This document shows, one piece after another, positions 1,800 to 44,662 of a stretch of DNA of 64,000 nucleotides. The DNA is from a virus. Taxonomy: Duplodnaviria > Caudoviricetes. Under the pieces are notes generated by a model. It searched no databases. It was not told the DNA's origin and saw nothing but the letters and a program-made list of their open reading frames with translations. The stretch is from positions 5,444 through 69,443 of the IMG/VR virus record IMGVR_UViG_3300026549_000076. One strand, written 5' to 3'. A program made the translations under genes and the position numbers. Position 1 is the stretch's first letter; every line of letters starts with the position of its first letter.

Positions 1800-1818
1800 A
1801 TAGCTCCTCCTTTAAAAA

Positions 1819-3669
1819 TTAAACTTCATATAAATCAACAAACTCATCTTGAGTAAGTAAAGAAGTATCATTAAAGTCTCCTATCTTTGCATGCATAAGA
1901 TACTTAATAATCTCATCTGTTGTACCTCTCTTCTTTTTAAGAAGATAATTAATAACTTTCTTTTGAAAATCATCTGGTAAATCACAGAACTTTCTATCAG
2001 ATAATTCAGTCTCATTAAAATCTTCTCTAGGTACAATAGATTTAATATTTAAATCTGCAGGCATAATTTCAATCAAACCTGAATCAATACCTGATTTAAA
2101 CTCATTATAATAATCAATTGCATCCTCATCTGAATCAGCTCTAAATCTTTCTAATTCATTTGCATCATTAGTAATAATATACTGACAACCATGAGGTTCA
2201 ACAAAATTAAACTTCATAACTCTTAAGAAAGCATCTTGTTTAAGAGTAGTTGCATCCCAATACTTTTCAGTATCATCTTGAACTTCCTCTGCCTCTTTAT
2301 ATTCTGGATTATTAACATAAAACCATTTATATAAAAGATTATCTTCCTTACCTTGTTTCTTAAGTTCTTCTCCCATCTTCCTCATTTCATCATAACCCTT
2401 AGAAGAATCTTTACTACTAAACACTTTCAAAACCTTATCATTATCACCAGTATCAATAATTCTATATTCTCTTATACGCTTAGGAACTTTCTTCACTTCA
2501 GCTTCATAAATATTACTTACAAAATCCTCTCCATACATATCTTTAAGTTGATTATATATTACATCCCTAGGATCTGAATCAATTTCATAAGCTAAATCTT
2601 TAAATAAAGATGGATCTTCATGAATAGCTTTAAAAGTTAAATTTTCAGGAATCTTATTTAATTGATACTCCATTGGAGCTTCAATTCTCATCCAATCTCT
2701 AATTCTCATATTCTCAGGAGGTCTTAAAGATAATTCTAAAAGTTCATCTGGAACCTTATACCCATTATCATACATCGGATCATTTACATCAGTAGAATAT
2801 GAATCAATAATACTTTGTAAATTACCTGGTATAACATAAAAATCATCAGATTCATTTAGACCTCTATCTTTGTCTTTACCAATGATTGAATCATAGTCAG
2901 CTTCTTTCATATCTGTAGGTTTAATTGCAGCATATCTAGCATAAGAATAACCTTCAGGTTCAACTAAAATATGTGGACTAGAGGAATTATCTTTATTAAT
3001 AACTTCTATACAATAAAAACATCCATCAACACATCTACACTTTTTACCTAACTTCTTAATCCAATCATAATCTTTAGAAATAAGACTACTAGTAAAATCA
3101 TCATACTCTTCATTAGAAAGCTCTTTGGTTGCTACAACTTTAAAATAATCACTACCAATACCCCAAGTTTTAATATCATCTAAATTAACTGGTTTCCTAA
3201 CAAATTCAGCTCTCCCATCTACAGTAGATTTTTCAGCCTCATTAAAACCATCAGTACATGAGGTCTTACCACTCTTAAGTTGATAATAAATATCTAAGTA
3301 TCTTTTAAATTCAGAAGAATTTGGATCACACATAGACATAGCTGTTTTCATATCCTTAATTGCATCTTCAATAGTAGGATATTCTTTGACATCCCCATAT
3401 AAAGAAACTTTAACTTTCTTTTCATCTGATTCATCAGATTCCTCAAACATACTAAACAACGTTCCAGCAACCTTATTACGAACTTCCTTTTCATCCGAAT
3501 TAGGCATCTTAGATTGAACATCTTTAACTATAGAATTAAAAGTATCATCAGTAATAGAAGAAACCTTAGTACCATTAGGTAAATTCTTAGACTTAATAAC
3601 ATTCTTAATTACTTCAGTACTTAAATCTAAATTATCCGAATTCTTCTTAATAGCTTCATACAAATTCAT
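1819..3669 (-). CDS. Putative internal head (cargo) polyprotein with MNLY tag, multi-module
   Basis: Starts MNLYEAIKKN. Repeated hydrophobic-x-E|(A/S/T/E) motifs lie between distinct small modules. One module (FVRKP...ILVEPEGYSYARYAA) is recalled as DUF6329-like. Confidence 0.55.
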   Translation of the reverse strand: MNLYEAIKKNSDNLDLSTEVIKNVIKSKNLPNGTKVSSITDDTFNSIVKDVQSKMPNSDEKEVRNKVAGTLFSMFEESDESDEKKVKVSLYGDVKEYPTIEDAIKDMKTAMSMCDPNSSEFKRYLDIYYQLKSGKTSCTDGFNEAEKSTVDGRAEFVRKPVNLDDIKTWGIGSDYFKVVATKELSNEEYDDFTSSLISKDYDWIKKLGKKCRCVDGCFYCIEVINKDNSSSPHILVEPEGYSYARYAAIKPTDMKEADYDSIIGKDKDRGLNESDDFYVIPGNLQSIIDSYSTDVNDPMYDNGYKVPDELLELSLRPPENMRIRDWMRIEAPMEYQLNKIPENLTFKAIHEDPSLFKDLAYEIDSDPRDVIYNQLKDMYGEDFVSNIYEAEVKKVPKRIREYRIIDTGDNDKVLKVFSSKDSSKGYDEMRKMGEELKKQGKEDNLLYKWFYVNNPEYKEAEEVQDDTEKYWDATTLKQDAFLRVMKFNFVEPHGCQYIITNDANELERFRADSDEDAIDYYNEFKSGIDSGLIEIMPADLNIKSIVPREDFNETELSDRKFCDLPDDFQKKVINYLLKKKRGTTDEIIKYLMHAKIGDFNDTSLLTQDEFVDLYEV

Positions 3670-3681
3670 AAACTAAACCTC

Positions 3682-4344
3682 CTAACCTATCTGTGTAAAT
3701 TTCTTACACTTATTGCAAATATAACCATGTTTAGAAACACCTAGATAAGATGAACCATCAGGTTTAAATTTACTACCTGAATCTGATGAACAAGTACACC
3801 AAATATCTTCTGGATCTTTTATTGCATCTCGATAAGCTTTACCCTCAGGTAATTCCCAAACATCCTCTGGTTTAAATAAACCACTAGAAGTTAACTTTTT
3901 AGTAAATCTTGCATATTCTTTAGCAATATCATCTGAAATCTTAGACTTATTCTTCTCATGGTCTTTAGTAACTTTATTAACCGCTGCAGCCCAAGTAGGA
4001 TCATTATCCATAGTATGAATTTCAGCATCATTTATTGGTTTCACTTTGTAATCTTTAGAATCATCAAAAGTCATAGTTAAACCTGTCTTAGAACTAAGTT
4101 CAAAAATAATTCCATCATTAGAAAACTTATCATTACCTAAATCTTCTCCACCTTTAGAAAGAATAATCTTCTTTAAAGCATCTAACTCATCAGTACTAAT
4201 TTCCCTTGCAGGAAAATGAATATACCCATTATTTTGATAAAGAGCACCAACTAAATTATCATAGAACTCTAAATAAGAACTTTCAAAAGAATCTAACTCT
4301 ACAGATTCTTTCATATTATTTTTAATTGAATTATATAAATTCAT
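3682..4344 (-). CDS. MNLY-tag protein with C-terminal Zn-binding module
   Basis: Starts MNLYNSIKNNMKES. C-terminal WCTC...KHGYICNKC cluster. Confidence 0.5.
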   Translation of the reverse strand: MNLYNSIKNNMKESVELDSFESSYLEFYDNLVGALYQNNGYIHFPAREISTDELDALKKIILSKGGEDLGNDKFSNDGIIFELSSKTGLTMTFDDSKDYKVKPINDAEIHTMDNDPTWAAAVNKVTKDHEKNKSKISDDIAKEYARFTKKLTSSGLFKPEDVWELPEGKAYRDAIKDPEDIWCTCSSDSGSKFKPDGSSYLGVSKHGYICNKCKKFTQIG

Positions 4345-4345
4345 A

Positions 4346-5026
4346 TTAATCTACCTCCTCTTGATTAAGTAAATTAACTTCTTCATCACTAAAGAATAAA
4401 GACTCTCCATTATGATCAACTTTAGTCATAGCTCCATATTCAGTATCTATAATGATAATATCATCATCAAACTTATTAGGATCCCTACGATAAAAAATCT
4501 TTCCATCATAATCAAGAATAAATTCATATCCTAATTCTTCTAACTTATCTGCAAAGTTTAAATCATAATCTTTACCATCAGTAGAAATTCTCTTTAAATC
4601 AATCTCAGAAACTCTCTCAGCTTCATCTAAATCTTCTTTACCTTCTCGTCTAGCATTATTATCTACAATATCATCTAACCATCTAGCACCAACTTGAAAC
4701 TTAAGTATTGGAAGATTACCCATTTCAGTCCACATATCAAGTGGGATAGAAACAAAAGTTAAATTATCTGGATACTTATTACTTCCAGTAAGTTCATACT
4801 TATCATTAAATTCCTTACCTGACCACCAATAAATATCACATGGAACTTTAAAACCTTTAGACTCTTTAGTAAAGAAATCAACTACTTGTGATAAACTATC
4901 ATCATCTGAATTCAATCCTTCCCAAGTAAGAGCAGAACCACTCTCTAATTCTGAAATCTTATCAGAATCAGCATGAATAAGATTATATTTCTTAGTATTT
5001 GACTTAACTGCTTCATATAAATTCAT
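4346..5026 (-). CDS. MNLY-tag protein, two modules
   Basis: Starts MNLYEAVKSN. An internal LDEA site separates two segments. RBS AAGGTGG upstream. Confidence 0.5.
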   Translation of the reverse strand: MNLYEAVKSNTKKYNLIHADSDKISELESGSALTWEGLNSDDDSLSQVVDFFTKESKGFKVPCDIYWWSGKEFNDKYELTGSNKYPDNLTFVSIPLDMWTEMGNLPILKFQVGARWLDDIVDNNARREGKEDLDEAERVSEIDLKRISTDGKDYDLNFADKLEELGYEFILDYDGKIFYRRDPNKFDDDIIIIDTEYGAMTKVDHNGESLFFSDEEVNLLNQEEVD

Positions 5027-5050
5027 AAAAACACCACCTTAAAAGTATAC

Positions 5051-5068
5051 CTACTATATTAGACAAAA
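5051..5068 (-). promoter_or_regulatory. Candidate late promoter (variant TTTTGT-CTAATA-TAGTAG)
   Basis: Intergenic, directly upstream of the MNLY cluster. Variant of the motif that recurs at other operon starts. Confidence 0.4.
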
Positions 5069-5077
5069 AACAAGTAA

Positions 5078-6103
5078 TTAAACTATGCTAGAGTTAATTC
5101 CTTGTTTTATATTCTCCTCATTATTATCTATGATTTCTTCATCAACTTCCTCATTATTAGAAACAGAATTAGAAAGTCTCTTATCTTGTTGATTCTTGAA
5201 ATCAATTTCATTATTAAAATAATCATCTACATCTTGTTCTAAAACCTTCATATCATCAGCAAAAGCCTTCTTACTCATATTAAATTCATCCTTAAGAAAC
5301 TCATCAATAGAACCATCTGGATTCTTATTAAGATACTTACGAACTTCAGAACGTAAAGATTTAATAATGTCATGATCATCCAAGAATGAATGATGTTTAG
5401 CTTGATGTGCAAAATAGTCATTCATATAATCAGAAGGCTTATTTCTCCACTTAACAGCTCTATTCTGTTGCTTAATCTGCTTAGCATGATTAAGTTGTTG
5501 ATAATCATCATAATCTAAATCATTCAACATACGAAGATAATTATTGATATCTTTAACAACTTGCTTTCTAATAGTCCCATTTTCATAAAGATTCTTAACT
5601 ACAGCAATAAGATGTAAATCCAACGCACCAGATAAGGATTTAGAACCATCCTTATACTGTAAATTACGCTTAGGTTGTCTAGTCTCAGGTTCAATTTCAT
5701 AATTACCAACAGTTGCTAAATACGCTTCACCCCAATAAAGAAATGATTCACAATTACATTTAACTCTAAAATTATTCATAGTTAAAAGCCTTGATAAATC
5801 TTGTTCTGTAAAATCATTCCCTTCACCAACTAAATCACCAAACTGTAAGATATCGGGTGCTTCAATAAAAGCATAATGATATTTACCAGAACGACTTCTA
5901 GATTTAACTTTAAAATTTAAAGTACCATCCTCAGATAAACCAAAATAACGAACTCCTGTCTCAACATCTCTAGCACGATATGCTACACTTGGAGTATTAG
6001 TAACTGACTTATTATACAAATTCTTAAGATTAGCTTCATAAAGTGAAACAATAGTTTCTTCAGAAAGTTTACAGAAGTTATTATAAATAGTACTAATCCT
6101 CAT
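5078..6103 (-). CDS. SWIM-like zinc-finger protein
   Basis: FRVKCNCESFLYWG...LDLHLIAV resembles SWIM CxC...xxH. The N-terminal LSEE and LYEA motifs resemble processing sites. Confidence 0.5.
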   Translation of the reverse strand: MRISTIYNNFCKLSEETIVSLYEANLKNLYNKSVTNTPSVAYRARDVETGVRYFGLSEDGTLNFKVKSRSRSGKYHYAFIEAPDILQFGDLVGEGNDFTEQDLSRLLTMNNFRVKCNCESFLYWGEAYLATVGNYEIEPETRQPKRNLQYKDGSKSLSGALDLHLIAVVKNLYENGTIRKQVVKDINNYLRMLNDLDYDDYQQLNHAKQIKQQNRAVKWRNKPSDYMNDYFAHQAKHHSFLDDHDIIKSLRSEVRKYLNKNPDGSIDEFLKDEFNMSKKAFADDMKVLEQDVDDYFNNEIDFKNQQDKRLSNSVSNNEEVDEEIIDNNEENIKQGINSSIV

Positions 6104-6653
6104 TTATAACACTCCCCTCATCATAATAAATTCCTCTACGTAAGAAAACATTCTCAAGATTAGGATCCTTCTTATCCGCTAAAACTTTAACATTCTCTTT
6201 CTGATCAAACCTAGTAGGTACAACTCTACAAACACACTGATTAAGTTCTAAGTCAGTTCTAACTTCAACAATCGTAAATTGAGTTGTAGTGACTGAACCC
6301 TTATCAATAGTAACCTTAGATGACAATTCAATAATAGCTCCCTCATCTATAGCAATAGGTTTATTATTAATATCAAAATAAGTAATAAATAAAACAATAG
6401 GCAATTGAGATTGATCTTCAGTAAACCAACCATATTTAGTTAAAAGTTTTCTAGATGGATTAGTTTCTAAATGATACGCAACATCAACAGCATCTTTATA
6501 ATCATAAATCTTATCAGTACCATTAACTTTAAAAGACTTTACTTGATAAAATTTACCTAAACGACCTTGAACTTTAGCAGAAAGTACAAACTGCTTTCTC
6601 AAATACTCTTGAGCATCAAAGTTAGGTAATAAAGATCCTTTAGATTCACTCAT
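6093..6653 (-). CDS. Putative head completion/neck protein
   Basis: Start reassigned to MSESKG because of the RBS AGGAGTG. Beta-rich sequence, located in the head gene cluster. Confidence 0.35.
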   Translation of the reverse strand: MSESKGSLLPNFDAQEYLRKQFVLSAKVQGRLGKFYQVKSFKVNGTDKIYDYKDAVDVAYHLETNPSRKLLTKYGWFTEDQSQLPIVLFITYFDINNKPIAIDEGAIIELSSKVTIDKGSVTTTQFTIVEVRTDLELNQCVCRVVPTRFDQKENVKVLADKKDPNLENVFLRRGIYYDEGSVINED

Positions 6654-6663
6654 AATATCACTC

Positions 6664-6969
6664 CTATTCATATTTATCTGCATCTTCCTCAACCTTCTGT
6701 AAGTATGCTTCACGCTCACTTGATATTGGAATCTTACCTTTATCCTCTAAATCTCTAACTTTATCTAACTTTTCTATATATGCACCTGATCCTGAATTAT
6801 AACGCTCAAATATTTTCTCAGCGTCTACATTAGTTATCAAATAATCATATGCTTCCTTATATGTATTAAAATTCTTATATGATTCACTAAATCCATTGCT
6901 TTCAGGATATGAAACTACATAATATTTAGTATTTAATGCACTCTCTTTAATACTTTTATATAAATTCAT
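6664..6969 (-). CDS. MNLY-tag small protein
   Basis: Starts MNLYKSIKESAL. RBS GAGGTGG. Confidence 0.5.
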   Translation of the reverse strand: MNLYKSIKESALNTKYYVVSYPESNGFSESYKNFNTYKEAYDYLITNVDAEKIFERYNSGSGAYIEKLDKVRDLEDKGKIPISSEREAYLQKVEEDADKYE

Positions 6970-6984
6970 ACATCCACCTCATTC

Positions 6985-9771
6985 CTACTTCTTATACTTA
7001 TTAACAACATTCTTAACAATAGCATCCACTTGTTCCTCAGGTACAAAGGCACCTTGAATTCTAGTAGGACTTGTTGCACCAACAGGTTTATATAGCATAT
7101 CACCTTTACCTAACAACTTCTCAGCTCCACCTTGATCTAAAATAGTTCTACTATCAGTATTAGAAGCTGTAGAGAATGCTATTCTAGAAGGAAAATTAGA
7201 TTTAATAGTTCCAGTAACTACATCAGTAGAAGGTCTTTGAGTAGCAACAATCATATGAATACCTGCAGCTCTAGCCTTCTGAGTAATACGTTGAATAGAA
7301 GTCTCAACTGACTTACCTGCAACAGACATCAAGTCAGCTAACTCATCTATAACACAAACTATATAAGGCATATGAGGTAACTTATTCTCATGAGATTTAT
7401 TATAGTTATCTACTAAAGAATTATAACCTTTAATATCCTTAACACCAGTTCTATTAAATATAGTATATCGTTCATCCATTTCTTCAGTTAAATCCTTCAA
7501 AGCACTATCAGCCTCTTTAGCATCAGTAATAATTGGTCTAAGTAAATGAGGAACATTCTTATAAGAACTAAGTTCAACTTGCTTAGGATCGATTAAAACT
7601 AACTTAACATCATCTGGACTATATTGTTGAATCAAACTACAAATCATAGAATTGATTGCACTAGACTTACCTGAATTACCTGTAATAGTTATAAAACCAT
7701 TTCTACGTAAAACCCACATACCTGTAGAAGTAGTGAAACAATATTTATATTCATTAGATTTTACTAATATATCTATATTATCCTTACCATGAGAATTAAC
7801 AATTGATGTAAGACTTCTTCCATTAGATATATGTACACAATAACAAACAGACTTGTATGTATAATCTCCATTAGAATGTTTCTTACCTACACGATTATCC
7901 TCAGTTATACTTGATTTAAAACCTAAAGAACTAAATACAAATTGAATAAAATCTGCATCAGTTTTACAAGTACTAAAATAGCGTTTAGTAGACTTAGAAA
8001 CACACCCATCCCATTTACATACATTATCTGCAATAACCTCTAATTGATATTTATTACAATTATACCAAGAACTATCAAAATGTTTTATTCTAACAGGTGA
8101 ATCAAAATAGAATTCAGAATAACCATCAGATCTAACACGTTCATCATATTCTATATTTGCCTCTAACAAGATATTCCTTAATTCAATCTTCTTTCTATTC
8201 TTCTTCAGATTAATTCTACACCTAGAAGTATCATTAAAGAAATTACCATCTGCCATAACAGCCAGCATAACTTTAATACATGAATCTGATAAATCAATAC
8301 CTTCACCTTCATAATTAAAAGTATGTATAAATTTACCTGTAAAACCATTAACTGAATTAAAATGCATATCAGCAATTTCTTTCATAGTTCTATGATAAAG
8401 ATTACCTTTAGAAGTTATATAATAAACATTATGTTCTGGACTCAACATCATATTCATTCCATATTTAGGTTTAACATAATAGAAAATATCTGCTGATTCT
8501 TTAATAAACGCTTGTGGATACTCTAAAGTAGCTTTACCATCTTCATGATAAACTAAAACTTTATCTCCTTCTTCATATTCAGAAATTGGTTTCCAACCAA
8601 AACCATTAAAAAATTCTGTATCCTTATCTACACAACCTGTAGTACCACCTATAAGAACGTGTTGTAACTTAAGAATATCCGCTGATTGAGCATTACCATT
8701 AGTATCCTTACCTAAGGCAACAGCTAAACCTGACTTATCCATATCTTCAAGAACATCATCTAAAGATACTGCAGAAATCTCAGCATTAGGAACTTGAATA
8801 CCAATAGAATTCTTTCCAGTTATTGGAGTAACATAAACAGAAGTTACACCCAAAGTCATTGCAATCTCCTTAGAAAGATTACTTACATCATTAATACGAA
8901 CACCTGATCCTAAAGTAAATTCATACTGAGTAATACTAGGCCCAACAAGACCTCCAACATAAGAAACTTTAACTCCATAATTAGATAAAGTAGATTCAAT
9001 AAGTTCACCTATAGATTTTAAATCTGGAGTATTCTGAGGTTTTAAATTTGCTAAAAATTCTTTATATTCATCTGGAAGTACATTCTCATAAAAAGTCTTA
9101 TAAGAATCTCCCCCTTTATCTCCCTCAATTTTATCCATAACTACCCAATCCCTCATAGTTCTAAGTATACTTGAATCATTCTTAGCAGGTATAAGATTAA
9201 AACTATTTGCAGAAGAATAAACATAGTCTCCCTTTAGACTCTTAGCAACCTCTTGTTCTTCATCAGTTAAAGGAGTTCTTTCTCCTTGATCATCAGAAGA
9301 TTGAGAAAACTTAACTAAATCCTCATCAACCTCAGGCTCTTGTTTAGTAGACTTCTTATTATCTACTCCTGATGAAATATCCTTTCTAGGTTGAATTGCA
9401 CTATTAATCTCACTCATATTTAAACTAATAGCTTCATCAATGGATTTAGAATTAGAAACATCAACTGCACCTAAATCAATAGTCTTAGTTGCTAAAGATA
9501 ATCTCAAAAAGGCATTTGCATCATAATCACCAATATCTCGATTATAACTTTCAATACTTTCATGTGTAGTATTAACCTCCAAAGTACAAGGAATAGTTGT
9601 AGATTCATCTTTATACGTACCAGAAAACTTTACAGAAAAACGAGTTCTATATCTAGGCAAACCAGAACTAAAAGTAAATCCATATTTCTCAAAAACTGGA
9701 AATACTACTTTAGTAATAGAATTTAACATTTTATCAACTGACTGTGCAGCTTCCACTAACTTTAACTTCAT
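6985..9771 (-). CDS. ftsK: FtsK/SpoIIIE-family DNA translocase (soluble), intein-containing
   Basis: Alpha domain (GPSITQYE..GIQVPN), Walker A GTTG|SGKS split by an intein, LIDPKQVEL, Walker B VIDELADL, ATQRPS, GAEKLLGKGDML. Confidence 0.93.
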   Translation of the reverse strand: MKLKLVEAAQSVDKMLNSITKVVFPVFEKYGFTFSSGLPRYRTRFSVKFSGTYKDESTTIPCTLEVNTTHESIESYNRDIGDYDANAFLRLSLATKTIDLGAVDVSNSKSIDEAISLNMSEINSAIQPRKDISSGVDNKKSTKQEPEVDEDLVKFSQSSDDQGERTPLTDEEQEVAKSLKGDYVYSSANSFNLIPAKNDSSILRTMRDWVVMDKIEGDKGGDSYKTFYENVLPDEYKEFLANLKPQNTPDLKSIGELIESTLSNYGVKVSYVGGLVGPSITQYEFTLGSGVRINDVSNLSKEIAMTLGVTSVYVTPITGKNSIGIQVPNAEISAVSLDDVLEDMDKSGLAVALGKDTNGNAQSADILKLQHVLIGGTTGCVDKDTEFFNGFGWKPISEYEEGDKVLVYHEDGKATLEYPQAFIKESADIFYYVKPKYGMNMMLSPEHNVYYITSKGNLYHRTMKEIADMHFNSVNGFTGKFIHTFNYEGEGIDLSDSCIKVMLAVMADGNFFNDTSRCRINLKKNRKKIELRNILLEANIEYDERVRSDGYSEFYFDSPVRIKHFDSSWYNCNKYQLEVIADNVCKWDGCVSKSTKRYFSTCKTDADFIQFVFSSLGFKSSITEDNRVGKKHSNGDYTYKSVCYCVHISNGRSLTSIVNSHGKDNIDILVKSNEYKYCFTTSTGMWVLRRNGFITITGNSGKSSAINSMICSLIQQYSPDDVKLVLIDPKQVELSSYKNVPHLLRPIITDAKEADSALKDLTEEMDERYTIFNRTGVKDIKGYNSLVDNYNKSHENKLPHMPYIVCVIDELADLMSVAGKSVETSIQRITQKARAAGIHMIVATQRPSTDVVTGTIKSNFPSRIAFSTASNTDSRTILDQGGAEKLLGKGDMLYKPVGATSPTRIQGAFVPEEQVDAIVKNVVNKYKK
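7675..8634 (-). mobile_element. Intein with LAGLIDADG homing endonuclease in the FtsK Walker A motif (320 aa)
   Basis: Begins CVDKDTEFF and ends RRNGFITITGN followed by Ser. Removing it restores GGTTGSGKS. Contains LAVMADG and CKWDG motifs. Confidence 0.92.
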
Positions 9772-9909: not shown

Positions 9910-11796
9910 CTAGACCTCTCCTAAAGTTGTATCTTCTGGAGTACCATTATTTGTAGGAGGTTCTTCAGGTAAAGGAAGTAATCCTTCATCATTAGTCTCC
10001 TCTCCAGTAGAAGTCTCCTCGCCAAAGTCTTCCTCAGGCGCACCATTAACATTTATATCAACAGGATTATCTATTGTAGAACCTGATGGTAAAGGTTCAT
10101 GTTCATTACCTTCTTCTCCAGACTCTTCATCTTCACTCGGTACAAGATTTTGCATATCCTTGCCTTCATCCTCATTAATCTTATCTAATAACTCAGCATC
10201 AAGATAACGAGTAACAAGTAAATCACGTACACCTGTATACTTACCATCTTCAAAACTAATACCTAAATTATTAAGTGAAGTAATTGCTCTATCAAGAGCT
10301 TCTTGTTTAGCTTGTTCAAATTCAATTCTATCCAAAGCATCTTGATTATTAATCTCTGCAAAAACAACATTAAGATCTACCTTAGAATGATCAATACCTA
10401 ATAAAGTAAGATATTGAATAAAGATATCTTCAAGACCTTGAGATAGAATAGCAGTAAATTGTTGAATAGTTCTAAGATAACGAATATCCTGTCTTGCAGC
10501 AGAAGTATTAATTAATTGTCCAGACTCATCACCATAGATTAAAGTCTTAGGAACTCCTAAAGAACCAAGTAATTGTTCCCTAAAATAATCTAGAGGCTCC
10601 TGAGTCTTAATATCCATATCTCCACCTATAGCTTGAACATTAATTGCACCAACTCCATTACGAGTAGGAACTATAATAGAATCACCTAAAGGTATCTGAG
10701 TTTGAGCAGAACTATAATAATCCTTACGAACATCTACAGTTTCACGAGTAGTAAGTCTCTTCTTAAACTCTAAAATAAGATTATCAGTTTCTTTAGAACT
10801 CATTGCCCCAACATCTATTTGAAAAAGTCTATAAATAGAACTTCTAGTAAGTAAAGCAAGTAAAGTACAATCTTCAACAGTATTAAGCATAGACCATGGA
10901 GTAACAGCCTTATCTATAAAAGATTGTCCTAAAGGTACTTCATATAAAGTAGATACTATATCATCCGGATTAGCCTTAACTGAAATAGTTTTAGTATTAC
11001 CCCTAGAATTAATGAAAGTAGTTATGTTTCTAGGATTTAAAACCTTTACCGTATTATCTAAATCTAAATAGAAAACAGTAACTCCCTTATTCATAAAAGG
11101 AACTAATGAACTAGGAAGAACCTCAAAATAGTATCTACCTACAAGTTTAGAATCCTTCATCTTATCAACAGACAAATCTGAATAAGTATAATCAGAAGTA
11201 CTTGCATCAAAGGAATTCTTAATATCTGAACCAAAGTCAGTAAAATAAGTTTCATTTGCTTCAGAAAGAATCTTACCCTGAACATCAGATTCAAACAAAT
11301 TACGCTTAACATTATTAGAACCTTCAAACAATTTAATTTTTACTTCTTCATACTTATCTACAAAACCAAATCGTACAGAAACAACACCATCAGTAATGAT
11401 TCTGTAAAGAACTTGAGGTAAGATATCTAAAATATTAGAATTAGTTAATAAATAATCTAGCACATCATTAATTTTAGTAATGTCATCATCAGTAACATTG
11501 TCATCTATTTTATTTACATCTACTGAAAAAATTTCATGTGTAAGAACATCTTTATGTAAAGCATCTGATATCCACATATTAATTATCATTGCAATAGTCG
11601 CATCTTCTAACATAGACTTCTTAATTTCACTTGTCATTGTACGTGAAGCATTAAGTCTAAAACTAGATAAAGAAGCTACAAAATTATAATATGGTAAAGA
11701 AAACAAAGATGACATATCTAATTGAGTTTTGTTACTAGACTCATTTAAATTAGATGATTCATTTAATTTAGATTTACCTCGACCAAATAAACCCAT
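9910..11796 (-). CDS. Portal protein, T4 gp20-like
   Basis: LTRSSIYRLFQIDVG..., DYFREQLLGSLGVPK, YLRTIQQF. Acidic C-terminal tail. N-terminal LNES repeats. Confidence 0.85.
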   Translation of the reverse strand: MGLFGRGKSKLNESSNLNESSNKTQLDMSSLFSLPYYNFVASLSSFRLNASRTMTSEIKKSMLEDATIAMIINMWISDALHKDVLTHEIFSVDVNKIDDNVTDDDITKINDVLDYLLTNSNILDILPQVLYRIITDGVVSVRFGFVDKYEEVKIKLFEGSNNVKRNLFESDVQGKILSEANETYFTDFGSDIKNSFDASTSDYTYSDLSVDKMKDSKLVGRYYFEVLPSSLVPFMNKGVTVFYLDLDNTVKVLNPRNITTFINSRGNTKTISVKANPDDIVSTLYEVPLGQSFIDKAVTPWSMLNTVEDCTLLALLTRSSIYRLFQIDVGAMSSKETDNLILEFKKRLTTRETVDVRKDYYSSAQTQIPLGDSIIVPTRNGVGAINVQAIGGDMDIKTQEPLDYFREQLLGSLGVPKTLIYGDESGQLINTSAARQDIRYLRTIQQFTAILSQGLEDIFIQYLTLLGIDHSKVDLNVVFAEINNQDALDRIEFEQAKQEALDRAITSLNNLGISFEDGKYTGVRDLLVTRYLDAELLDKINEDEGKDMQNLVPSEDEESGEEGNEHEPLPSGSTIDNPVDINVNGAPEEDFGEETSTGEETNDEGLLPLPEEPPTNNGTPEDTTLGEV

Positions 11797-12293: not shown

Positions 12294-14036
12294 TTAATCA
12301 CTCCATTCATCTATAATTAATTCATCATTAACATAAATTCTAAATTTACATGCAAACATATCAATATACTCATCAGGTCCACAAGCTATATTAATATCAG
12401 GATCAACTACTTCTAGATAATCTATATAAGGGAAAGCATTAAGTAAATCCTTACCAATAGTAGAACCATATAAAGAATCCCCAATACCTAAAGATTCTCT
12501 ACCATAGATACTTTTCATATAAGATTCTATAGTAGTTGCAATAGATGCAACTCGTAAATCATCCTTATCCATATAAACATTTAATCTAATATTTGGAGTT
12601 AATCTAACTGGATCCTCATAAGTAATCATTAAAGAAGAAAGTCTTCTAAGATCTACATATTCCTTAAGAGCAAGTAAACTAACTGATGGTGAATAAGTTC
12701 CTAAACTATATGAATAAGAACAAACTGCATCATCAAAGAAATCATTTTCTACTGAAGTGATACTACCAGTAGAATAATCTATTGCACCAACAACAGTTCC
12801 CTCACCAGAAACTATATTATTTCCATCAGTAGTATATTCAACATCACCTATGTAAATCTCTACTTCATAATCCTGAGAAACTGGAAAATTAGCTAACTGA
12901 TAAGTAGTAGTTGAAGTCTTAGCTAAATCCTCTTCCTCAACAGATTCTGTATCCTTAACAAAGATAGAAATCTCATTTGGATTAGATGGTAGAACTAAAA
13001 CCTTAGCTTTATATGCATCACCTGGTTGAACATATCCTGTCCAATCATCATTATAGTCTCCACACTTAACATCTGCAATTTCAGAAAGAGCTTCAGACAA
13101 CTCTTCAAAATCTCTCTTAGTAACTATAGTATCCATAGTTCTTGCATGAATAGGTGCATTAACTTTTAATTCATCTACAGTCTCTGGAAAGTAACCTCCT
13201 TCAGAAACTGTATTAGTAATACCATAACTACGAATTAATGTAGTCTGAGAACTAGTAGTTAAAATATTAGCACCAATACGTCCAGCTTCACCTTGAGAAA
13301 TTAAATACGTAATAACACAATAAGAACCATCTGCAAGAGTCTCACTCCAATAAGAAGGAAGCTGAACATAAACTCTAGCATACTCATCTACATGAACAGA
13401 GAAAGCAAAAATACCTGCTATAAATCTAATATCCTCAACTCTAGGAATTAAACTATTAGAAATACTAGGAATCATCAACTGAACAGTATTAGTTCCTATC
13501 TTATAATCAGGTAAGTAAATCTTACCATCAGAAGTAATCTGAGAATAAGTATATGTATTAGTAACCCTAGTACCTTCATAAGCAACCTGACTACCAACAC
13601 CTCTAGAAATTAACATAGGCTCTAATAAAGTATAAGTAATAGTATTCTCTCTATTAGTAAAAGTAGTATATGCAGGAAGTGTAGTAGAATCACTAGTCTC
13701 TGCATTAGCTTGTAAAGTAATAGTAGTAAAAGCAGATTCATAATGTCTTGGCTTATAACCTATAAGTTTAAGAATAGACATTATTGAAGTTCTCTCAACA
13801 GCAGTATCTAAGAAAAGTTCTGATGCTGTCTTATCTATTTGAAAGTTATTACTATCTGCAAGATACGCCATAAGCCCTAAAAGAATAGAACCTATATCAC
13901 CAGAACTAAAATCTGTCCAACGACCTTCAGAAAGAATACCTGCTTGTTCTTTCAAATACTCATAAATAGACATTACATCTCTTCTAGTGTAAGTAGTATT
14001 ATTCATACCTAAAATACTATTCTCAAAGTCTGCCAT
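12294..14036 (-). CDS. Baseplate wedge subunit, T4 gp6/baseplate J-like
   Basis: WTDFSSGDIG..LMAYLADSNNFQID..ELFLDTAVERTSI..LIGYKP, and ETVDELKVNAP..RTMDTIVTKRDF. Confidence 0.88.
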   Translation of the reverse strand: MADFENSILGMNNTTYTRRDVMSIYEYLKEQAGILSEGRWTDFSSGDIGSILLGLMAYLADSNNFQIDKTASELFLDTAVERTSIMSILKLIGYKPRHYESAFTTITLQANAETSDSTTLPAYTTFTNRENTITYTLLEPMLISRGVGSQVAYEGTRVTNTYTYSQITSDGKIYLPDYKIGTNTVQLMIPSISNSLIPRVEDIRFIAGIFAFSVHVDEYARVYVQLPSYWSETLADGSYCVITYLISQGEAGRIGANILTTSSQTTLIRSYGITNTVSEGGYFPETVDELKVNAPIHARTMDTIVTKRDFEELSEALSEIADVKCGDYNDDWTGYVQPGDAYKAKVLVLPSNPNEISIFVKDTESVEEEDLAKTSTTTYQLANFPVSQDYEVEIYIGDVEYTTDGNNIVSGEGTVVGAIDYSTGSITSVENDFFDDAVCSYSYSLGTYSPSVSLLALKEYVDLRRLSSLMITYEDPVRLTPNIRLNVYMDKDDLRVASIATTIESYMKSIYGRESLGIGDSLYGSTIGKDLLNAFPYIDYLEVVDPDINIACGPDEYIDMFACKFRIYVNDELIIDEWSD

Positions 14037-14436
14037 AATTAATACCTCCTTCAGAATTCAATGGAATCTTATATTCAAGACGAGTACTTAAATTAGTGTT
14101 AACCGTAACATAATCAATTTTAAGATAAAGTAAAGTACTATCAATTTCAGACTCAATAGTAACATCCTTAATAAAATTATAATTATTCAACAAAACACTT
14201 TTAACTTCATCATTTATAAGTAACACATTAGTATTACTAGAATTATCAAATAAGTATCTATAAAGATTAGAACCATACTCTGGATTACCTAAAAGAGAAC
14301 CCTTACGAGTAAGAAGTAAAGTTCTAATGTCTTGTTGAAGTTTCTCATGTTGAGAAACAACTCCAATACTACCTAAAGAATTAATTACCTTATCAGTAGA
14401 CATACCCTGTAAGGTTAAAACATTAATAGAAGCCAT
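14023..14436 (-). CDS. Baseplate wedge gp25/GPW-like protein
   Basis: IRTLLLTRKGSLLGNPEYGSNLYRYLFD. Confidence 0.88.
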   Translation of the reverse strand: MASINVLTLQGMSTDKVINSLGSIGVVSQHEKLQQDIRTLLLTRKGSLLGNPEYGSNLYRYLFDNSSNTNVLLINDEVKSVLLNNYNFIKDVTIESEIDSTLLYLKIDYVTVNTNLSTRLEYKIPLNSEGGINYGRL

Positions 14437-14437
14437 A

Positions 14438-14833
14438 TTATATCAAACCTCCATGATTAAGAATCTCACCTAAAGGTGGAAGTCTAAGAGTTAAATTAGT
14501 TCTTACTTGCAAAGGTGAAATTAAATTGTTACAAGATAAGATAACCCAATAATAAATAGGTGAACCATAAACCTCATTAGAAATTAAGTCTGGTCTATAC
14601 TGCTTTGATGCATCTACAAAATAATACTGATCATCAGTAGAAACCTCTAAATAAAGCTGTGACTTCTTAATAAACTCTAAAAAAGTAACTCCTGTATATG
14701 AAGTAAGTCTAATTTTATTTCTGTAACGACTCAAAGTATTGTTATCTCTATCAGAATAAACATCTGATAATGTACTAGAAAACCATACCTCACGATTACT
14801 AGGTTCTAGATGAGTTTGATATTCATTGTTCAT
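14438..14833 (-). CDS. Baseplate wedge gp53/LysM-like protein
   Basis: RPDLISNEVYGSPIYYWVILSCNNLISPL. Confidence 0.85.
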   Translation of the reverse strand: MNNEYQTHLEPSNREVWFSSTLSDVYSDRDNNTLSRYRNKIRLTSYTGVTFLEFIKKSQLYLEVSTDDQYYFVDASKQYRPDLISNEVYGSPIYYWVILSCNNLISPLQVRTNLTLRLPPLGEILNHGGLI

Positions 14834-14848
14834 AATATCTCATCCCCT

Positions 14849-14864
14849 CTCTTATTTAAGAAAA
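14849..14864 (-). promoter_or_regulatory. Candidate late promoter TTTTCT-TAAATA-AGAG (variant)
   Basis: Just upstream of the gp53-like gene RBS. Confidence 0.35.
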
Positions 14865-14882
14865 ATTATTGATAATTAAAAA

Positions 14883-17684
14883 TTAACTATTACTTAGAAT
14901 ATCCACAACAGTTGTTCTATCCCAATGAGTAGAATCCCACGATTCAGCTGTTGAAATAGTAGTATTACATTTATAAAGTAAACCTAAATAAACAACATAA
15001 TCCCCTACATCATAAGTTGAAGATGAAGAATAAATAGGTGCAATATTAGCCATAAGATCATCAACATACTTCTTAGGAGTAAATTGATTATCTGTAGTAG
15101 GTAAACCAGAAAAACGTCCTATTACTGGATAGTCCCCAAAGGTCTTAACTCCTCCTATAGACTGTGCACCAGTAAGATTAACAAAGCGATTTTCAAAATA
15201 AGTAGTTGAATTCTGTGCTAGATGATATACATAAGTAGTACTATAAGTCAATCTAGTAACATAAGAAATAACTGACTCAGTATTTCCAACACCTAAACAA
15301 TAATAATACGCAAGAACATCTCCAGAAGAATAAGTATTAGACTCATAAGGTTCTATATCCTCAGGTACAATTAAAATTCTAGGAGTATTCATAGTTACAA
15401 ATTTACCTGAATTACTACTTCCATAACTAATATAAGTACCTACATTAGAAGAAAGAGGATTGAAAACATAAAGTCCTTTACTTAAACCAGATAAATCAAA
15501 AGGTGTATACTCTGAATCATGTGTAGTACTAATATAAAAAACTTCATCAGTACCCCCAGCATTATCATCTACATACTTCTTATTAACTAATTGATTATCT
15601 GTTGTCGGAACTATAGATGATTCTGGTAAAACATAAAAGTTTTTTACTCCGTATATAGTTTGTTTATCATATAAAGTAACTGCTGATGATATAGCTCCTA
15701 AATTATAATCATCAATAACACCATAAACATTATTTTGTGCTACACCAATATAAATATAATTACGATTACGTGAAGAAGTAAGAGGATCTCTACCCATTAG
15801 ATAAAAAGGTCTACTATTAGATGATTCATGTCCTACAAATAGAAATGCTCCATAAGAAGATGTTGTGACATACCCACCAGACTTATAATACAAATTAACA
15901 CCTGATTCTACATCATAAATACCCTCTTCTAATTCCCAAATATTTGTAGCTGTAGTAATACTAGGAAGTTCTCCAGTGATACTAATATCCCCAGATCCTA
16001 AGATTGATTCATTATTAATTGTTTTAATATTTGAACCACTAACTAATAAGTCTTGTTTAGAAACTAAACTATCATCAACATATTTCTTATTAACCAACTG
16101 ATTATTCGTTGTTGGAACCACAGAAGATTCTGGTAAAGTAGAGAAAGTCTTTTTACTTGATATAGTTTGATTATCATATAAAGTAACAGCTGATGATATA
16201 GCGTCTAAATTATAAGAGTAAATTATTCCATAAACATTATTTTGTGCTACACCAACATAAATATAATCATTATTCCTAGAAGAAGTAAGAGGATCTCTAC
16301 CCATTAGATAAAAAGGTCTTCTATTAGACGACTCATGTCCTACAAATAGAAATGCTCCATAAGAAGATGTTGTGACATAACCAGAAGATTTATAATATAA
16401 ATTAACACTAGGTCCAACATCATAAATACCTTCTTCTAACTCCCAAATATTTGTAGCTGTAGTAATACTAGGAAGTTTTCCTGTAATACTAATATCTCCT
16501 GATCCTAAAATTGACTCATTATTGATTGTTTTAACATTAGAACCACTCACCAATATATCTTGTTTAGAAACTAAACTATCATCAACGTATTTTTTATTTA
16601 CTAATTGCTTATTTGTAGTTGGAACTACAGAAGATTCTGGTAAAGTAGAGAAAGTTTTCTTACCTGAAATTGTTTGAGCTGTATCTTTAGACACATAGGT
16701 TCTAGCAGAATAAGAAGTTATATTTAAACCTGTATTATATAATCCTGGATTTTGTCTAGCAACAGTAACAGGATAATCAGTATATCTATCATTAACAGTT
16801 GAATATTTAACATAATACGCTAATACTGTATCATCAGCTACATCTTCAGGTATATCATTTAAAATGGCAATATAGTGTGCTAAACCCAAAGGCTCAGATA
16901 TTACATGAGTAGTTTCATCAAAAGTATAATAAACTGAAGAAATGGATCTATTAAAAAAGTATAAGCCTTTCTTCTTACCACAAAAATAAAATGGATTAGA
17001 TGAACTATTAGTATCAATATAATATATTGGTGCATCATATAAAATACTAATATCTCCTGTTCCTAAAATACTTTCATTATTAACAGTTTTAATATTAACT
17101 CCTGAAACTAGAGCATCTTGTTTAGCATTCCAAGTATTCTTCTCTGTAGAAGAAACAAACTTATTAACTTGATTAGTATCATCTACTAAATCACTTGCAA
17201 GTTTATTACTAGAAGTAATTTCTGTCTGCAAACCTGAAATTAAATCCCCTACAGGAATATCTATAGTACTACCACTCTGTAAAGTTAAAACAATCTTCTT
17301 ATTAGTATTATCATACTCACCATTAACAACCACAGACTCTAAAGGTAAATCTATAGAATCTGAACTAATAACTGTACCAGAACTATTCTTCAAAGACAAA
17401 GTAACAACATAAGTAGTTGAATTGATATCTAAATCTATAAAAGAACCTGCATCCACAGCTAAAGTATAATGAGTTAAATCATTAACATCCTTATTAATAA
17501 AACCAGAATCATTAATTAAATCTGAAGTCTTAGTAGGTGAAGAAATTTGGATATCACCTGAACCTAAAATACTTTCATTATTAATAGTCTTAATATTAGT
17601 TCCAGAAATAAGCTTAGATTGAAAAATTTCACCTAACTTATTTTTAAATCTTCTTAACCCAGAAAAATCTAAATACTTTGCCAT
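14883..17684 (-). CDS. Tail fibre/receptor-binding protein, modular
   Basis: Four KT(I/V)NNESILG(S/T)GDI repeats and four PTT..KKYVDD linkers. C-terminal YSSSSTYDVGDYVVY..YKC...W resembles a chitin/carbohydrate-binding module. Confidence 0.8.
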   Translation of the reverse strand: MAKYLDFSGLRRFKNKLGEIFQSKLISGTNIKTINNESILGSGDIQISSPTKTSDLINDSGFINKDVNDLTHYTLAVDAGSFIDLDINSTTYVVTLSLKNSSGTVISSDSIDLPLESVVVNGEYDNTNKKIVLTLQSGSTIDIPVGDLISGLQTEITSSNKLASDLVDDTNQVNKFVSSTEKNTWNAKQDALVSGVNIKTVNNESILGTGDISILYDAPIYYIDTNSSSNPFYFCGKKKGLYFFNRSISSVYYTFDETTHVISEPLGLAHYIAILNDIPEDVADDTVLAYYVKYSTVNDRYTDYPVTVARQNPGLYNTGLNITSYSARTYVSKDTAQTISGKKTFSTLPESSVVPTTNKQLVNKKYVDDSLVSKQDILVSGSNVKTINNESILGSGDISITGKLPSITTATNIWELEEGIYDVGPSVNLYYKSSGYVTTSSYGAFLFVGHESSNRRPFYLMGRDPLTSSRNNDYIYVGVAQNNVYGIIYSYNLDAISSAVTLYDNQTISSKKTFSTLPESSVVPTTNNQLVNKKYVDDSLVSKQDLLVSGSNIKTINNESILGSGDISITGELPSITTATNIWELEEGIYDVESGVNLYYKSGGYVTTSSYGAFLFVGHESSNSRPFYLMGRDPLTSSRNRNYIYIGVAQNNVYGVIDDYNLGAISSAVTLYDKQTIYGVKNFYVLPESSIVPTTDNQLVNKKYVDDNAGGTDEVFYISTTHDSEYTPFDLSGLSKGLYVFNPLSSNVGTYISYGSSNSGKFVTMNTPRILIVPEDIEPYESNTYSSGDVLAYYYCLGVGNTESVISYVTRLTYSTTYVYHLAQNSTTYFENRFVNLTGAQSIGGVKTFGDYPVIGRFSGLPTTDNQFTPKKYVDDLMANIAPIYSSSSTYDVGDYVVYLGLLYKCNTTISTAESWDSTHWDRTTVVDILSNS
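15570..16650 (-). repeat. Tandem duplication with 507-bp (169-aa) period inside the tail fibre
   Basis: ATAAAGTAAC at 15671 and 16178 anchors the offset. The two modules are near-identical in protein sequence. Boundaries are approximate. Confidence 0.9.
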
Positions 17685-24943: not shown

Positions 24944-25180
24944 CTAATTTCCATTTATATTTTTATTCTTCTCTTCTATAAAATCACCTAAAACTTCTGA
25001 CATAAAAACCAATTCTGCAGGTGATATCATATCAGTATATTCCATAGATACATGATTATCTGCAAAATAGAATTGAAGTCTCAGTAAATCTCTATAACTT
25101 TCATAACAATATTTATCATAAACTTTTCTATCTTTCTCAGATAGCTTAATCCCATAATGTAAACTATACGAGACGAAAAA
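24944..25180 (-). CDS. Startless reading frame (78 codons): probable frameshift extension of the tail assembly chaperone (GT-like)
   Basis: +1 frame is open from the TTT-TTT-C run to a TAG overlapping the tape measure RBS: FFVSYSLHYGIKLSEKDRKVYDKYCYESYRDLLRLQFYFADNHVSMEYTDMISPAELVFMSEVLGDFIEEKNKNINGN. No start codon with an RBS was seen. Confidence 0.7.
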   Translation of the reverse strand, partial: FFVSYSLHYGIKLSEKDRKVYDKYCYESYRDLLRLQFYFADNHVSMEYTDMISPAELVFMSEVLGDFIEEKNKNINGN

Positions 25181-25976
25181 AGTCTGGCGCGATATACGCT
25201 TCTACCTCATCTGAATTTCCACACTTAGGACAATCAGATATAAACTTTCTATCTAATCCAAAAGACTCAGTCACATCAGTATATTCTTTATTAAGAGATT
25301 CAAAATCAAATGCAGATAAACCTGAAATAAACTTATACTTATCTTCAAAATCTTCAAAAGGTTCTCCATTTTTAGATTGAATCATATAAGAAATCTTAGA
25401 TAATAAAATCTCCCAAGTAGTATCCTCATCAGATAAATTCTTCTGCTTAGCTCTACGTCTAGCAATCTGTTCACAATGTTGAATTTCACCTTCTGACAAA
25501 ATTTTAAATGTAACAGTATCATTCAAATCTTCTAATTTAACTTTAAATAAGTTTTCTTTATATTCTGAATACTTAACCTTAAGTTCTGGAATTCTAATTT
25601 CAGTATCATAAAGATTATTACATTCAGTACAATATACTCTCTGTTGTAAATTCTTAGGTGAAGAAATATACCTTAACATAAAACATAAATAGATTACATC
25701 ATTAGGATGTAAATCATTTAAAGAGAAATTGACTGGTGAAACTATACACCCTTTAATTAAAGAAGTTAAAAAATTTGGATCCTTAGACGTATAAAGAGTC
25801 TTAGTTTGTTGAATTGTCATTCTCTTCAAAGTAACCTGAGTAACCTCAGGATTCATAAGCCCATTGCTTGGAAGTTTAACAGTAGTTGTTGCCTCGTACA
25901 TTAAAGTTTCATTAGCATCCACCGCAGTGATTGCCTCTGTAATATTAGTTACCATATCTTTATTTGTATCATTCAT
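25164..25976 (-). CDS. Tail/baseplate assembly chaperone (T4 gp26-like)
   Basis: VKLPSNG..., DLHPNDVIYL..LRYIS, CxxC motifs (CTEC, CPKC), ends APDFFRLV. Directly upstream of the tape measure gene. Confidence 0.8.
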   Translation of the reverse strand: MNDTNKDMVTNITEAITAVDANETLMYEATTTVKLPSNGLMNPEVTQVTLKRMTIQQTKTLYTSKDPNFLTSLIKGCIVSPVNFSLNDLHPNDVIYLCFMLRYISSPKNLQQRVYCTECNNLYDTEIRIPELKVKYSEYKENLFKVKLEDLNDTVTFKILSEGEIQHCEQIARRRAKQKNLSDEDTTWEILLSKISYMIQSKNGEPFEDFEDKYKFISGLSAFDFESLNKEYTDVTESFGLDRKFISDCPKCGNSDEVEAYIAPDFFRLV

Positions 25977-27804: not shown

Positions 27805-27922
27805 ATAACAAACCTCTCCTTTTAAATAATATTTGAAGACCATCATTCTCCTAGTCCGCAGATACATAAAACGATTAAACTCCGAATCATTTTACTAGTA
27901 TAACTAATAAAATAATACTCTT

Positions 27923-32491: not shown

Positions 32492-33088
32492 TTAAATTTT
32501 AGTTATATAATCATGGAAATTAGGATCAGTGAATACTTCCTTACGAGCAAAGTCGTCAACAGAAATAGTCATATCTAAAGTTCTAATTCCTGAATCAGTA
32601 TAACTTAAATCTCCCCAACTAATAGATACTGGGAAACATCCACGTGCAATACTTGGACGTCCTTTGTCTCCATTAGGTGATAATGGAATAATTTCTATAT
32701 CTAACTTGTAACCACTCTTTCCAGTTTCATTACCAACAATACCACGAGTACCATCTTTAATATTTAAGATAGCTTCAGCCCATTTAGTTAATTTCAACTC
32801 AGTATCTGCTGAAATAACATCTCTAACAACAATTCTCATATCACTGAAACTATTACGTCCAGCTAAATTGATATTCTTGTTAGCATATGGAACTTCAATC
32901 TTAGCAAATTGTCTTTCAGGTAAAGATACAGACTCAGCTATAAGTTCAAAACCTTCACCTAAGAAACTACTCTTCTCAAATACAATAATAAAGTTTTCCT
33001 TCATTTGTATTTGATAATCTCTTGTATTAAAGAAGTTTGGAGTTAATTGTGGAGTTAAACCTTCACTACTTAATAATGTCTCTGCCAT
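32492..33088 (-). CDS. Tail tube protein, gp19-like
   Basis: SVSLPERQF..YANKNINLAGR, GCFPVSISWGDLSY. Follows the sheath gene. Confidence 0.88.
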   Translation of the reverse strand: MAETLLSSEGLTPQLTPNFFNTRDYQIQMKENFIIVFEKSSFLGEGFELIAESVSLPERQFAKIEVPYANKNINLAGRNSFSDMRIVVRDVISADTELKLTKWAEAILNIKDGTRGIVGNETGKSGYKLDIEIIPLSPNGDKGRPSIARGCFPVSISWGDLSYTDSGIRTLDMTISVDDFARKEVFTDPNFHDYITKI

Positions 33089-44518: not shown

Positions 44519-44662
44519 CTAATCTAAATTCTCTGGATCCGCATATTTATCACCATGATTTAAATATAAATCATATAAATATTTCATATAAGCATCATTA
44601 TCTTTATCTGCGTCTCCTTTAAAATCACTATATGCTTTATCCTCATAAAAATTATTCTGCAC
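44519..44662 (-). CDS. Possible small protein (47 aa), not in the ORF track
   Basis: GTG start with a weak AAGGA RBS. MQNNFYEDKAYSDFKGDADKDNDAYMKYLYDLYLNHGDKYADPENLD fills the gap exactly. Confidence 0.4.
   Translation of the reverse strand: MQNNFYEDKAYSDFKGDADKDNDAYMKYLYDLYLNHGDKYADPENLD

Follow-up and report, generated by a model that had tools for sequence, protein, structure and literature searches.

A portable N-terminal peptide on eight otherwise unrelated proteins of an uncultured T4-type myophage: a probable capsid-targeting sequence

Introduction

Why do eight proteins that otherwise seem unrelated start with the same few residues? The question is raised by 64 kb of phage DNA (positions 5444–69443 of the 69,443-bp IMG/VR record IMGVR_UViG_3300026549_000076; hereafter the window), in which eight open reading frames (ORFs) begin with the pattern MNL[YF]xx[IVL][KN]. 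Capsid targeting in T4 has been known since the 1990s and, to our knowledge, is documented in few lineages. An initial annotation of the window proposed a portable tag that loads proteins into the phage head and, judged from the sequence, this is still the best-supported reading. We estimate a probability of about 0.7 that the tag is a capsid-targeting sequence removed by the head protease. Whether the tagged proteins are also injected as effectors is a separate matter, for which the odds seem roughly even.

The capsid-targeting reading is favored because the phage has a T4-type head and a relative encodes a Peptidase_S77 protease, because the peptide is conserved on 29 proteins and carries a gp21-type cleavage motif at residue 13, and because it resembles both the T4 tag (positions 4 and 7) and the N-terminus of T4 gp67. 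It is further favored by an enrichment of cleavage motifs, by syntenic islands that swap their genes, by profile matches that all lie at residue 1 and by an LPD11 domain in a distant homologue of one tagged protein.

The tagged open reading frames

All eight ORFs are present where the initial annotation had placed them, all on the minus strand. They are listed by window position; the arrow marks a putative cut.

1819–3669 (−), A616, 616 residues: starts MNLYEAIKK (MNLYEAIKKNSDN); multi-domain; second half of the tag degenerate.
3682–4344 (−), B220, 220 residues: starts MNLYNSIKN; tag MNLYNSIKNNMKE↓S, with MKE↓S at residues 11–13.
4346–5026 (−), C226, 226 residues, acidic: starts MNLYEAVKS (MNLYEAVKSNTKK); Glu-13 absent, second half degenerate.
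6664–6969 (−), D101, 101 residues: shortened tag MNLYKSIKE↓S, with IKE↓S at residues 7–9.
34579–35676 (−), E365, 365 residues, acidic: starts MNLYKALND (MNLYKALNDDYREFKLHE↓S...KLHE↓S), with LHE↓S at residues 16–18 and 37–39.
44652–45623 (−), F323, 323 residues: starts MNLFEAIKN; canonical tag MNLFEAIKNNLNE↓A, with LNE↓A at residues 11–13.
45636–46199 (−), G187, 187 residues: starts MNLYESIKK (MNLYESIKKHGTD); second half degenerate; C-terminal zinc-ribbon-like domain.
46214–47179 (−), H321, 321 residues: starts MNLFKTIKF; tag MNLFKTIKFNLKE↓G, with LKE↓G at residues 11–13; first gene of a variable island of three genes.

A ribosome-binding site of the GGAGG or GGTGG type lies 7–10 nucleotides upstream of each of the eight tag ATGs. 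For H321 the start was set at 47179, because the GTG at 47194 that opens the longest ORF falls inside this site. The full motif was found on no other ORF of at least 50 residues in the 69-kb record, i.e. it marks 8 of 72 ORFs.

Behind the tag the proteins diverge, as had been claimed. An all-versus-all BLASTP comparison from residue 13 to the end gave nothing significant among the eight bodies, the best E-value (0.028) connecting two short Cys-rich C-termini. Unrelatedness is therefore meant at the level of pairwise BLASTP, and very remote paralogy among the small proteins is possible. The post-tag motifs quoted in the initial annotation are present in B220, D101, E365, F323 and H321. Within residues 7–20, [LIMV]xE[SAG] occurs in five of the eight tagged proteins, compared with 5 of 64 untagged proteins.

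Relatives and gene turnover

A scan of relatives for the tag had been recommended. Searching IMG/VR and the JGI/ENA metagenome contigs with the tag as a degenerate DNA pattern yielded two more phages. G001 (IMGVR_UViG_3300033463_000045; 112,265 bp with terminal repeats) has mostly the gene order of the window, a capsid protein 66% and a portal 52% identical to those of the window, and 13 ORFs that start with MNLY or MSLY. The other, the contig Ga0256404_1002631 (39 kb), has 8 tagged ORFs. When IMG/VR was searched with the capsid protein, a single sequence retrieved nothing and an alignment retrieved G001 only. Most of the 78 matches to a first DNA pattern for the tag were due to chance or to one unrelated orthologous family of 139 residues, and the matches L032 and L061 were rejected as tags, because they fall on internal Met codons of an unrelated phage.

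A short N-terminal peptide is thus common to otherwise unrelated proteins, 8 in the window and 29 in the three phages, whose sizes range from 74 to 1217 residues. The tagged cargo genes of G001 and Ga0256404_1002631 are not orthologous to those of the window; only short, domain-sized similarities were found. The island with three tagged genes at 44652–47179 lies between two conserved genes, and the G001 orthologues of these flanking genes enclose six different tagged genes (62171–68306). Syntenic islands with differing content parallel the variable internal-protein genes of T-even phages. Similarly, D101 is regarded as an insertion, since the orthologous spot in G001 has no gene. E365 is located directly upstream of the tail sheath gene and is conserved: its G001 orthologue, which starts MKEKTLFGMLNDDYRE, is 44% identical in the C-terminus and 38% in the N-terminus, the latter being related but extended. 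From this comparison E365 is better described as a conserved, probably processed virion protein than as swapped cargo.

G001 encodes a protease of the Peptidase_S77 (T4 gp21) family at 82360–83178 (44.5 bits, cut-off 27). Two of its tagged genes are placed immediately upstream of the protease gene, at the position taken by genes 67 and 68 in T4, and another is immediately upstream of the capsid gene.

The gene directly upstream of the protease in G001 (L100), at 1712–2347, contains an internal copy of the tag that lacks the Met, ...YYESNLYSMIKSNQKLNE↓SV, at about residues 78–93. Either two genes have been fused or the tag is able to work internally.

Consensus of the tag

The 29 tags give a consensus of 13 residues, MNLY-x-x-IK-N-N-L-[NK]-E↓[SAG]. 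M1, N2 and L3 are followed by Tyr (26 tags) or Phe (3 tags) at position 4, [E/K/S]5, [S/N/A]6, an aliphatic residue at position 7 (Ile in 25, Leu in 3 and Val in 1), K8, x9, N10, L11, [K/N]12 and E13, and then by Ser, Ala or Gly. In the window, F323, H321 and B220 carry the canonical form. The motif [LIMV]xE stands exactly at residues 11–13 in 17 of the 29 tagged ORFs, as against 6 of 225 untagged ORFs from the same genomes (Fisher P = 3e-14; binomial P = 1e-21 for a background of 2.1% per position), and in 14 of these 17 tags the residue after Glu-13 is Ser, Ala or Gly. T4 gp21 cleaves after L/I-x-E (PMC9026906). An ending of this kind, L/I-x-E plus a small residue, was assigned to 17 of the 29 tags and, within 20 residues, to five of the eight in the window.

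The codons of the tag match the codon bias of the genome, except at Ile-7, where ATT is used in 24 of 25 cases compared with about 14 expected. Positions 5 and 6 vary among similar residues (E/K/S/N and S/N/A/T/G, respectively), and the DNA upstream of the tagged genes is conserved at the ribosome-binding site only. For these three reasons the constraint acts on the peptide rather than on the nucleic acid. The amphipathic-helix moment of the tag is near that of the T4 tag and marginally above that of shuffled sequences. A profile of the first 30 residues of the tagged proteins, run against 1.84 billion representative proteins, had nine matches, one of which is a repeat artefact. The remaining eight, including four new proteins, all align at residue 1.

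Two T4 sequences resemble the tag. The first is the T4 capsid-targeting sequence, which reads MKTYQEFIAE↓A in IPII and IPIII and MKTFKEFTSTTTPVSTITE↓A in IPI (MKTFKEF...ITE↓A) in the T4 genome. The second is the N-terminus of gp67 (PHROG 1064), a protein of the scaffolding core that is cleaved by gp21. This N-terminus (MEGLIEAIKSNDLV) contains LIEAIKSN, which is identical in seven of eight residues to LYEAIKSN of the tag variant MNLYEAIKSN and has nearly the same offset from Met. The degenerate pattern L-[Y/F/I]-[E/Q/K]-[A/S]-I-K-x-N has one match in all six frames of the 169-kb T4 genome, namely codons 4–11 of gp67. The gp67 motif is closely kept in four of five sampled homologues from T4-like phages; the copy of Salmonella phage Melville is more divergent. 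The likeness is confined to the motif, PHROG 1064 matches none of the small tagged proteins, and the literature searched holds no documentation that the gp67 N-terminus mediates core binding.

Head proteins and cleavage sites

Judged by its genes, the source is an uncultured contractile-tail myophage with a T4-type particle, distant from T4. The following other genes of the window are relevant here.

5078–6103 (−) and 6093–6719 (−): two untagged conserved genes between tagged genes; G001 orthologues 39% and 67% identical.
9910–11796 (−): T4-type portal (Pfam Portal_T4, 107 bits).
25164–25976 (−): T4_baseplate protein (Pfam).
26356–27804 (−): Gp23-family major capsid protein (Pfam Gp23, 32.9 bits, cut-off 24.4).
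32492–33088 (−): gp19-like tail tube (Pfam).
33088–34575 (−): tail sheath.

A Gp23-family capsid protein and a gp20-type portal, i.e. a T4-type head, are present in the phage. The window has a G+C content of about 30%, all its genes are on the minus strand, and the record is about 48% complete according to CheckV. Searches of Pfam and PHROGs gave no function for the two untagged genes. The nearest cultured phages by capsid (25–30% identity) infect Listeria, Bacillus and Streptococcus (Bacillota). Megablast of positions 1800–7000 against cultured phages gave no match, and in Bacillus phage HSE3, the nearest small cultured relative (capsid 29% identical), no N-terminal prefix is common to at least three ORFs. 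A search of the 69-kb record with Pfam Peptidase_S77 gave no match, the record being only about 48% complete.

The predicted cleavage motif is not restricted to the tags. L[NK]E[SAG] occurs 40 times in G001 compared with 6.1 ± 2.5 times in residue-shuffled proteins (LNES alone 19 times versus 1.2), and 11 times in the genome of the window phage compared with 3.4 ± 1.9. These sites, three- to sixfold enriched, are concentrated in the tagged proteins and the E365 family on the one hand and, on the other, in the portal, the capsid protein and the products of the head-module genes adjacent to the protease. The rest of the untagged G001 proteins (an estimated 27,000 residues or so) contains about six sites, which is near the expectation from shuffling.

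The initial annotation had also noted hydrophobic-x-Glu motifs at the N-termini of portal and capsid protein. For the portal this is confirmed: it starts MGLFGRGKSKLNE↓SSNLNE↓SS, and a double N-terminal L-N-E↓S/A is present in the portals of both the window phage and G001. Hence, the portal is predicted from sequence to be a protease substrate. The claim fails for the N-terminal MNE↓A of the capsid protein. The longest ORF (26356–27867, minus strand) begins 21 codons upstream of the likely true start, the ATG at 27804 (MNEAQ...), which was chosen because it matches the start of the G001 orthologue. MNEA is consequently the initiator region and no cleavage site. Further inside, a conserved MMNE↓AEG (residues 60–63) aligns with the maturation site LTE↓AEIGG of T4 gp23, and the capsid protein also has a conserved ALKE↓SS at residues 31–36.

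A second class of N-terminal motif, M-[KR]-hydrophobic-[KR/F]-L-x-E↓[AS], is seen in three or four independent families, several of which are encoded next to the protease of G001. Examples are MKLKLVE↓A of an FtsK-like protein, MRLKLSE↓S, MKIRLKE↓A, MRIFLKE↓A, MFMKVKLKLLE↓A and MKKIKLVLNE↓S. The genes are located at 6985–9771 (−) and 3–164 (−) in the window, at 10148, 76145, 76795 and 77342 in G001 and at 2276 and 2796 in L141. These leaders may be another kind of head-protease propeptide. In that case the FtsK-like motor would also be a head protein.

Bodies of the tagged proteins

An AlphaFold2 model of A616 (mean predicted local distance difference test score, pLDDT, 70.6) consists of separate domains connected by flexible linkers. 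In the model, residues 3–8 of the tag are a short helix, and the LNE↓S of an internal GLNE↓S (residues 270–274) is situated inside a disordered linker (255–276). The tagged G001 protein encoded at 12479–15418 has six internal L[NK]E[SAG] sites besides its tag. Since internal sites are found in big tagged proteins and the site in A616 falls into a disordered linker, these observations suggest a division of the big tagged proteins into domains within the head.

Database searches place few of the bodies. F323 is an ORFan among 5.8 billion proteins, H321 has no relatives in the protein atlas, B220 matches no family in Pfam or PHROGs, and G187 matches phrog_20898, a family of unknown function. The best Foldseek match of the A616 model has E = 2e-3 and a low TM-score. 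The closer A616 homologues in the collection of 5.8 billion proteins (P0002–P0009) keep the MNLY tag. The distant ones (P0010–P0020, on contigs up to 114 kb) share a different leader, MRVMSSKSFFESLQESLNE↓ or MRLLNKSLTESIFSTLNE↓S, the core of which, [FL][FY]ES[LF]QExL[NK]E, parallels the core of the MNLY tag behind an extra head of 6–8 residues. A pattern scan of IMG/VR for this second leader (MRVM...FFESLQESLNE) found only unrelated internal matches, and an alignment-based search found none. One of the distant homologues, P0020, contains an LPD11 domain.

Some further observations concern these proteins and their genes. The C-termini of G187 and B220 are Cys-rich and zinc-ribbon-like (CPMC...CEDC and CTC...CNKC), and a similar CxxC cluster is present in the tagged G001 protein at 105281. 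Residues 142–266 of P0013, one domain of this tagged multi-domain protein, match hypothetical genes in 186 phage records, mostly with Listeria, Staphylococcus, Enterococcus or Bacillus hosts; the match in Bacillus phage Grass is located within its terminal-repeat region. These matches are a hint of an early role in host takeover and of a Bacillota host range. Intergenic words similar to TTTTCATAAT are enriched about 20-fold over the genome in both the window phage and G001. They are found upstream of 59945, 59675, 51419 and 31159, and at two sites in the 5.4 kb that precede the window in the record, and are not tied specifically to tagged genes. They may be promoter elements.

Proposed mechanism

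We propose that the leader M-N-L-[YF]-x-x-[IVL]-K-x-N-L-[NK]-E, probably as a helix, would bind to the scaffolding core of the assembling T4-type prohead, whereby the protein behind it would be built into the head. After assembly of the shell, a gp21-family protease would cut behind the Glu of L-x-E, usually at residue 13, and thereby free the mature protein in the capsid. The same protease may also cut the larger tagged proteins at internal L-[NK]-E↓[SAG] linkers. The cargo, encoded by gene islands of fast turnover, would presumably be delivered with the DNA at infection. Each step of this scheme, from binding to the core through cleavage and retention in the virion to injection, is inferred here, as is the effector function.

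Several points weigh against this mechanism. The tagged proteins have a net charge of −7.9 per 100 residues, compared with −2.9 for the rest. Being acidic and often large, they differ from the small basic internal proteins of T4 and would fit less easily beside packed DNA; consequently, some of them may be expendable core components instead of delivered effectors. Three of the eight (A616, C226 and G187) have no hydrophobic-x-Glu[S/A/G] close behind the tag. Searches of Pfam, PHROGs, PDB sequences and the protein atlas as well as Foldseek gave no function for any cargo. A late-promoter motif, TTTCT-N6-8-TAGWR, was tried and rejected: it has 12 matches compared with 9.8 ± 3.2 expected, and in two cases its 3' part is the ribosome-binding site. 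Finally, the phage's own incomplete record contains neither a protease nor a scaffold gene, which, because of this incompleteness, speaks neither for nor against the model.

A more far-reaching version, which we consider speculative and somewhat more doubtful than credible, is that about one gene in ten encodes a pre-packaged, fast-evolving acidic protein or polyprotein, loaded by a gp67-derived helix and cut at L-[NK]-E↓S linkers. In this version the head-packaged protein set of a whole uncultured lineage would be readable from sequence alone, and capsid-targeting sequences in general would have arisen when new genes acquired a copy of a core protein's N-terminus. If capsid targeting is confirmed, sequence alone would suffice to list the proteins that enter the host with the DNA; these would be the first place to look for anti-defence and host-takeover functions. 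With its 13 residues and its built-in release site, the tag might also serve as a practical means of packaging foreign proteins in phages with low-GC hosts.

Alternative explanations

The alternative that survives best, which we nevertheless regard as unlikely, is that the tagged proteins are accessory core or scaffold proteins like T4 gp67, gp68 and gp22, which would be cut and expelled before DNA packaging and not injected. The near identity of the tag core with the gp67 N-terminus fits well with this idea, as do the acidity that the tagged proteins share with T4 core proteins, the several internal L[NK]E[SAG] sites in the large ones, and the location of tagged G001 genes at the gene 67/68 position beside the protease. 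A scaffold set is, however, expected to be conserved, yet the tagged genes are non-orthologous despite capsid proteins that are 66% identical, and one of them is an ORFan. Sizes from 74 to 1217 residues and folded domains also speak against it, and the internal sites are few and located in linkers, whereas T4 gp22 is densely cut.

It is also improbable, and slightly more so, that the tag is a signal unrelated to the capsid, e.g. a degron or timing signal, a docking site for a chaperone or membrane complex, or a determinant of tail or baseplate assembly. The acidic cargo without an assigned role, the position of E365 next to tail and neck genes and the modest amphipathic-helix signal would be compatible with it. 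But the tag is too weakly hydrophobic for a secretion signal, the same L-x-E is present at the portal N-terminus and in the capsid propeptide (the T4 maturation site), and the closest T4 match is a protein of the prohead core.

That the common start is a nucleic-acid feature, either an enhancer of translation initiation or a homology patch for cassette recombination, is very improbable: the AT-rich tag directly behind the ribosome-binding site, the ATT preference at Ile-7, the location in islands of changing content and the aid to cassette exchange proposed for the conserved DNA of the T4 sequence would suit it, but a mere initiation bias, named in the initial annotation as a possible cause, does not account for a tag on only 8 of 72 ORFs that is missing from other well-expressed structural genes, the remaining conserved codons follow the genome bias, positions 5 and 6 vary among similar residues, a protease consensus ends the motif at a fixed residue, one G001 protein has an internal copy without Met, and a second type of tag has a different leader with the same peptide core.

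Comparison with known systems

Capsid targeting with proteolytic release, the reading preferred here, is best compared with the T4 system. Both have a short leader on unrelated proteins of a phage with a Gp23 head (10–19 residues in T4, 13 here), which ends with the gp21 motif, hydrophobic-x-Glu plus Ala, Ser or Gly. In both, the genes occupy variable loci outside the head-gene cluster. In the T4 tag, targeting depends on residues 4 and 7 and processing on residues 8 and 10 (PMC9026906). Position 4 is aromatic in both tags, with the same Tyr/Phe alternation, and position 7 is hydrophobic in both and always aliphatic in the new one, so that targeting residues can be assigned to both positions, by analogy only. 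The two tags are not alignable as homologues (MKTYQEFIAE versus MNLYESIKNNLNE); the resemblance is at the level of pattern, and the gp67 N-terminus, which suggests an origin for such tags, is closer. Further differences are the position of the cleavage motif (residues 11–13 here, 8–10 in T4), the number of tagged genes (8 in half a genome and 13 in G001, compared with three in T4) and the cargo, which is acidic, up to 1217 residues long and provided with internal cleavage motifs, in contrast to the small, basic internal proteins of T4.

The ejection proteins of the giant phages SPN3US and phiKZ have propeptides that are removed after Glu by a gp21-related protease (PMC5694885). These systems have in common with the present one head-internal proteins with Glu-cleaved propeptides and a processed portal (both predicted here), and paralogues with conserved N-termini. 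Their propeptides of 79–127 residues are, however, not portable across unrelated proteins in the way of the 13-residue tag.

Polyvalent proteins, which occur in phages and conjugative elements, are large and multi-domain; they are predicted to be packaged in the capsid and to enter a new host with the DNA (Iyer et al. 2017, PMC5512222). The LPD11 domain in the distant A616 homologue, a marker of this class, is a point of likeness. A616 itself is multi-domain according to its AlphaFold2 model, yet no Pfam domain was above threshold; likewise, no polyvalent-protein domain exceeded its threshold in the window proteins (DUF6329 scored 22.5 bits, cut-off 26.8). In the passages of Iyer et al. 2017 (PMC5512222) that were searched, no such N-terminal targeting tag is described.

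The tag would add to T4 a second and independent case, clearly readable, from a distant uncultured lineage and on far more and far larger proteins. It varies the capsid-targeting principle of T4, with cargo proteins that are unusually numerous, large and acidic, and does not represent a new kind of system.

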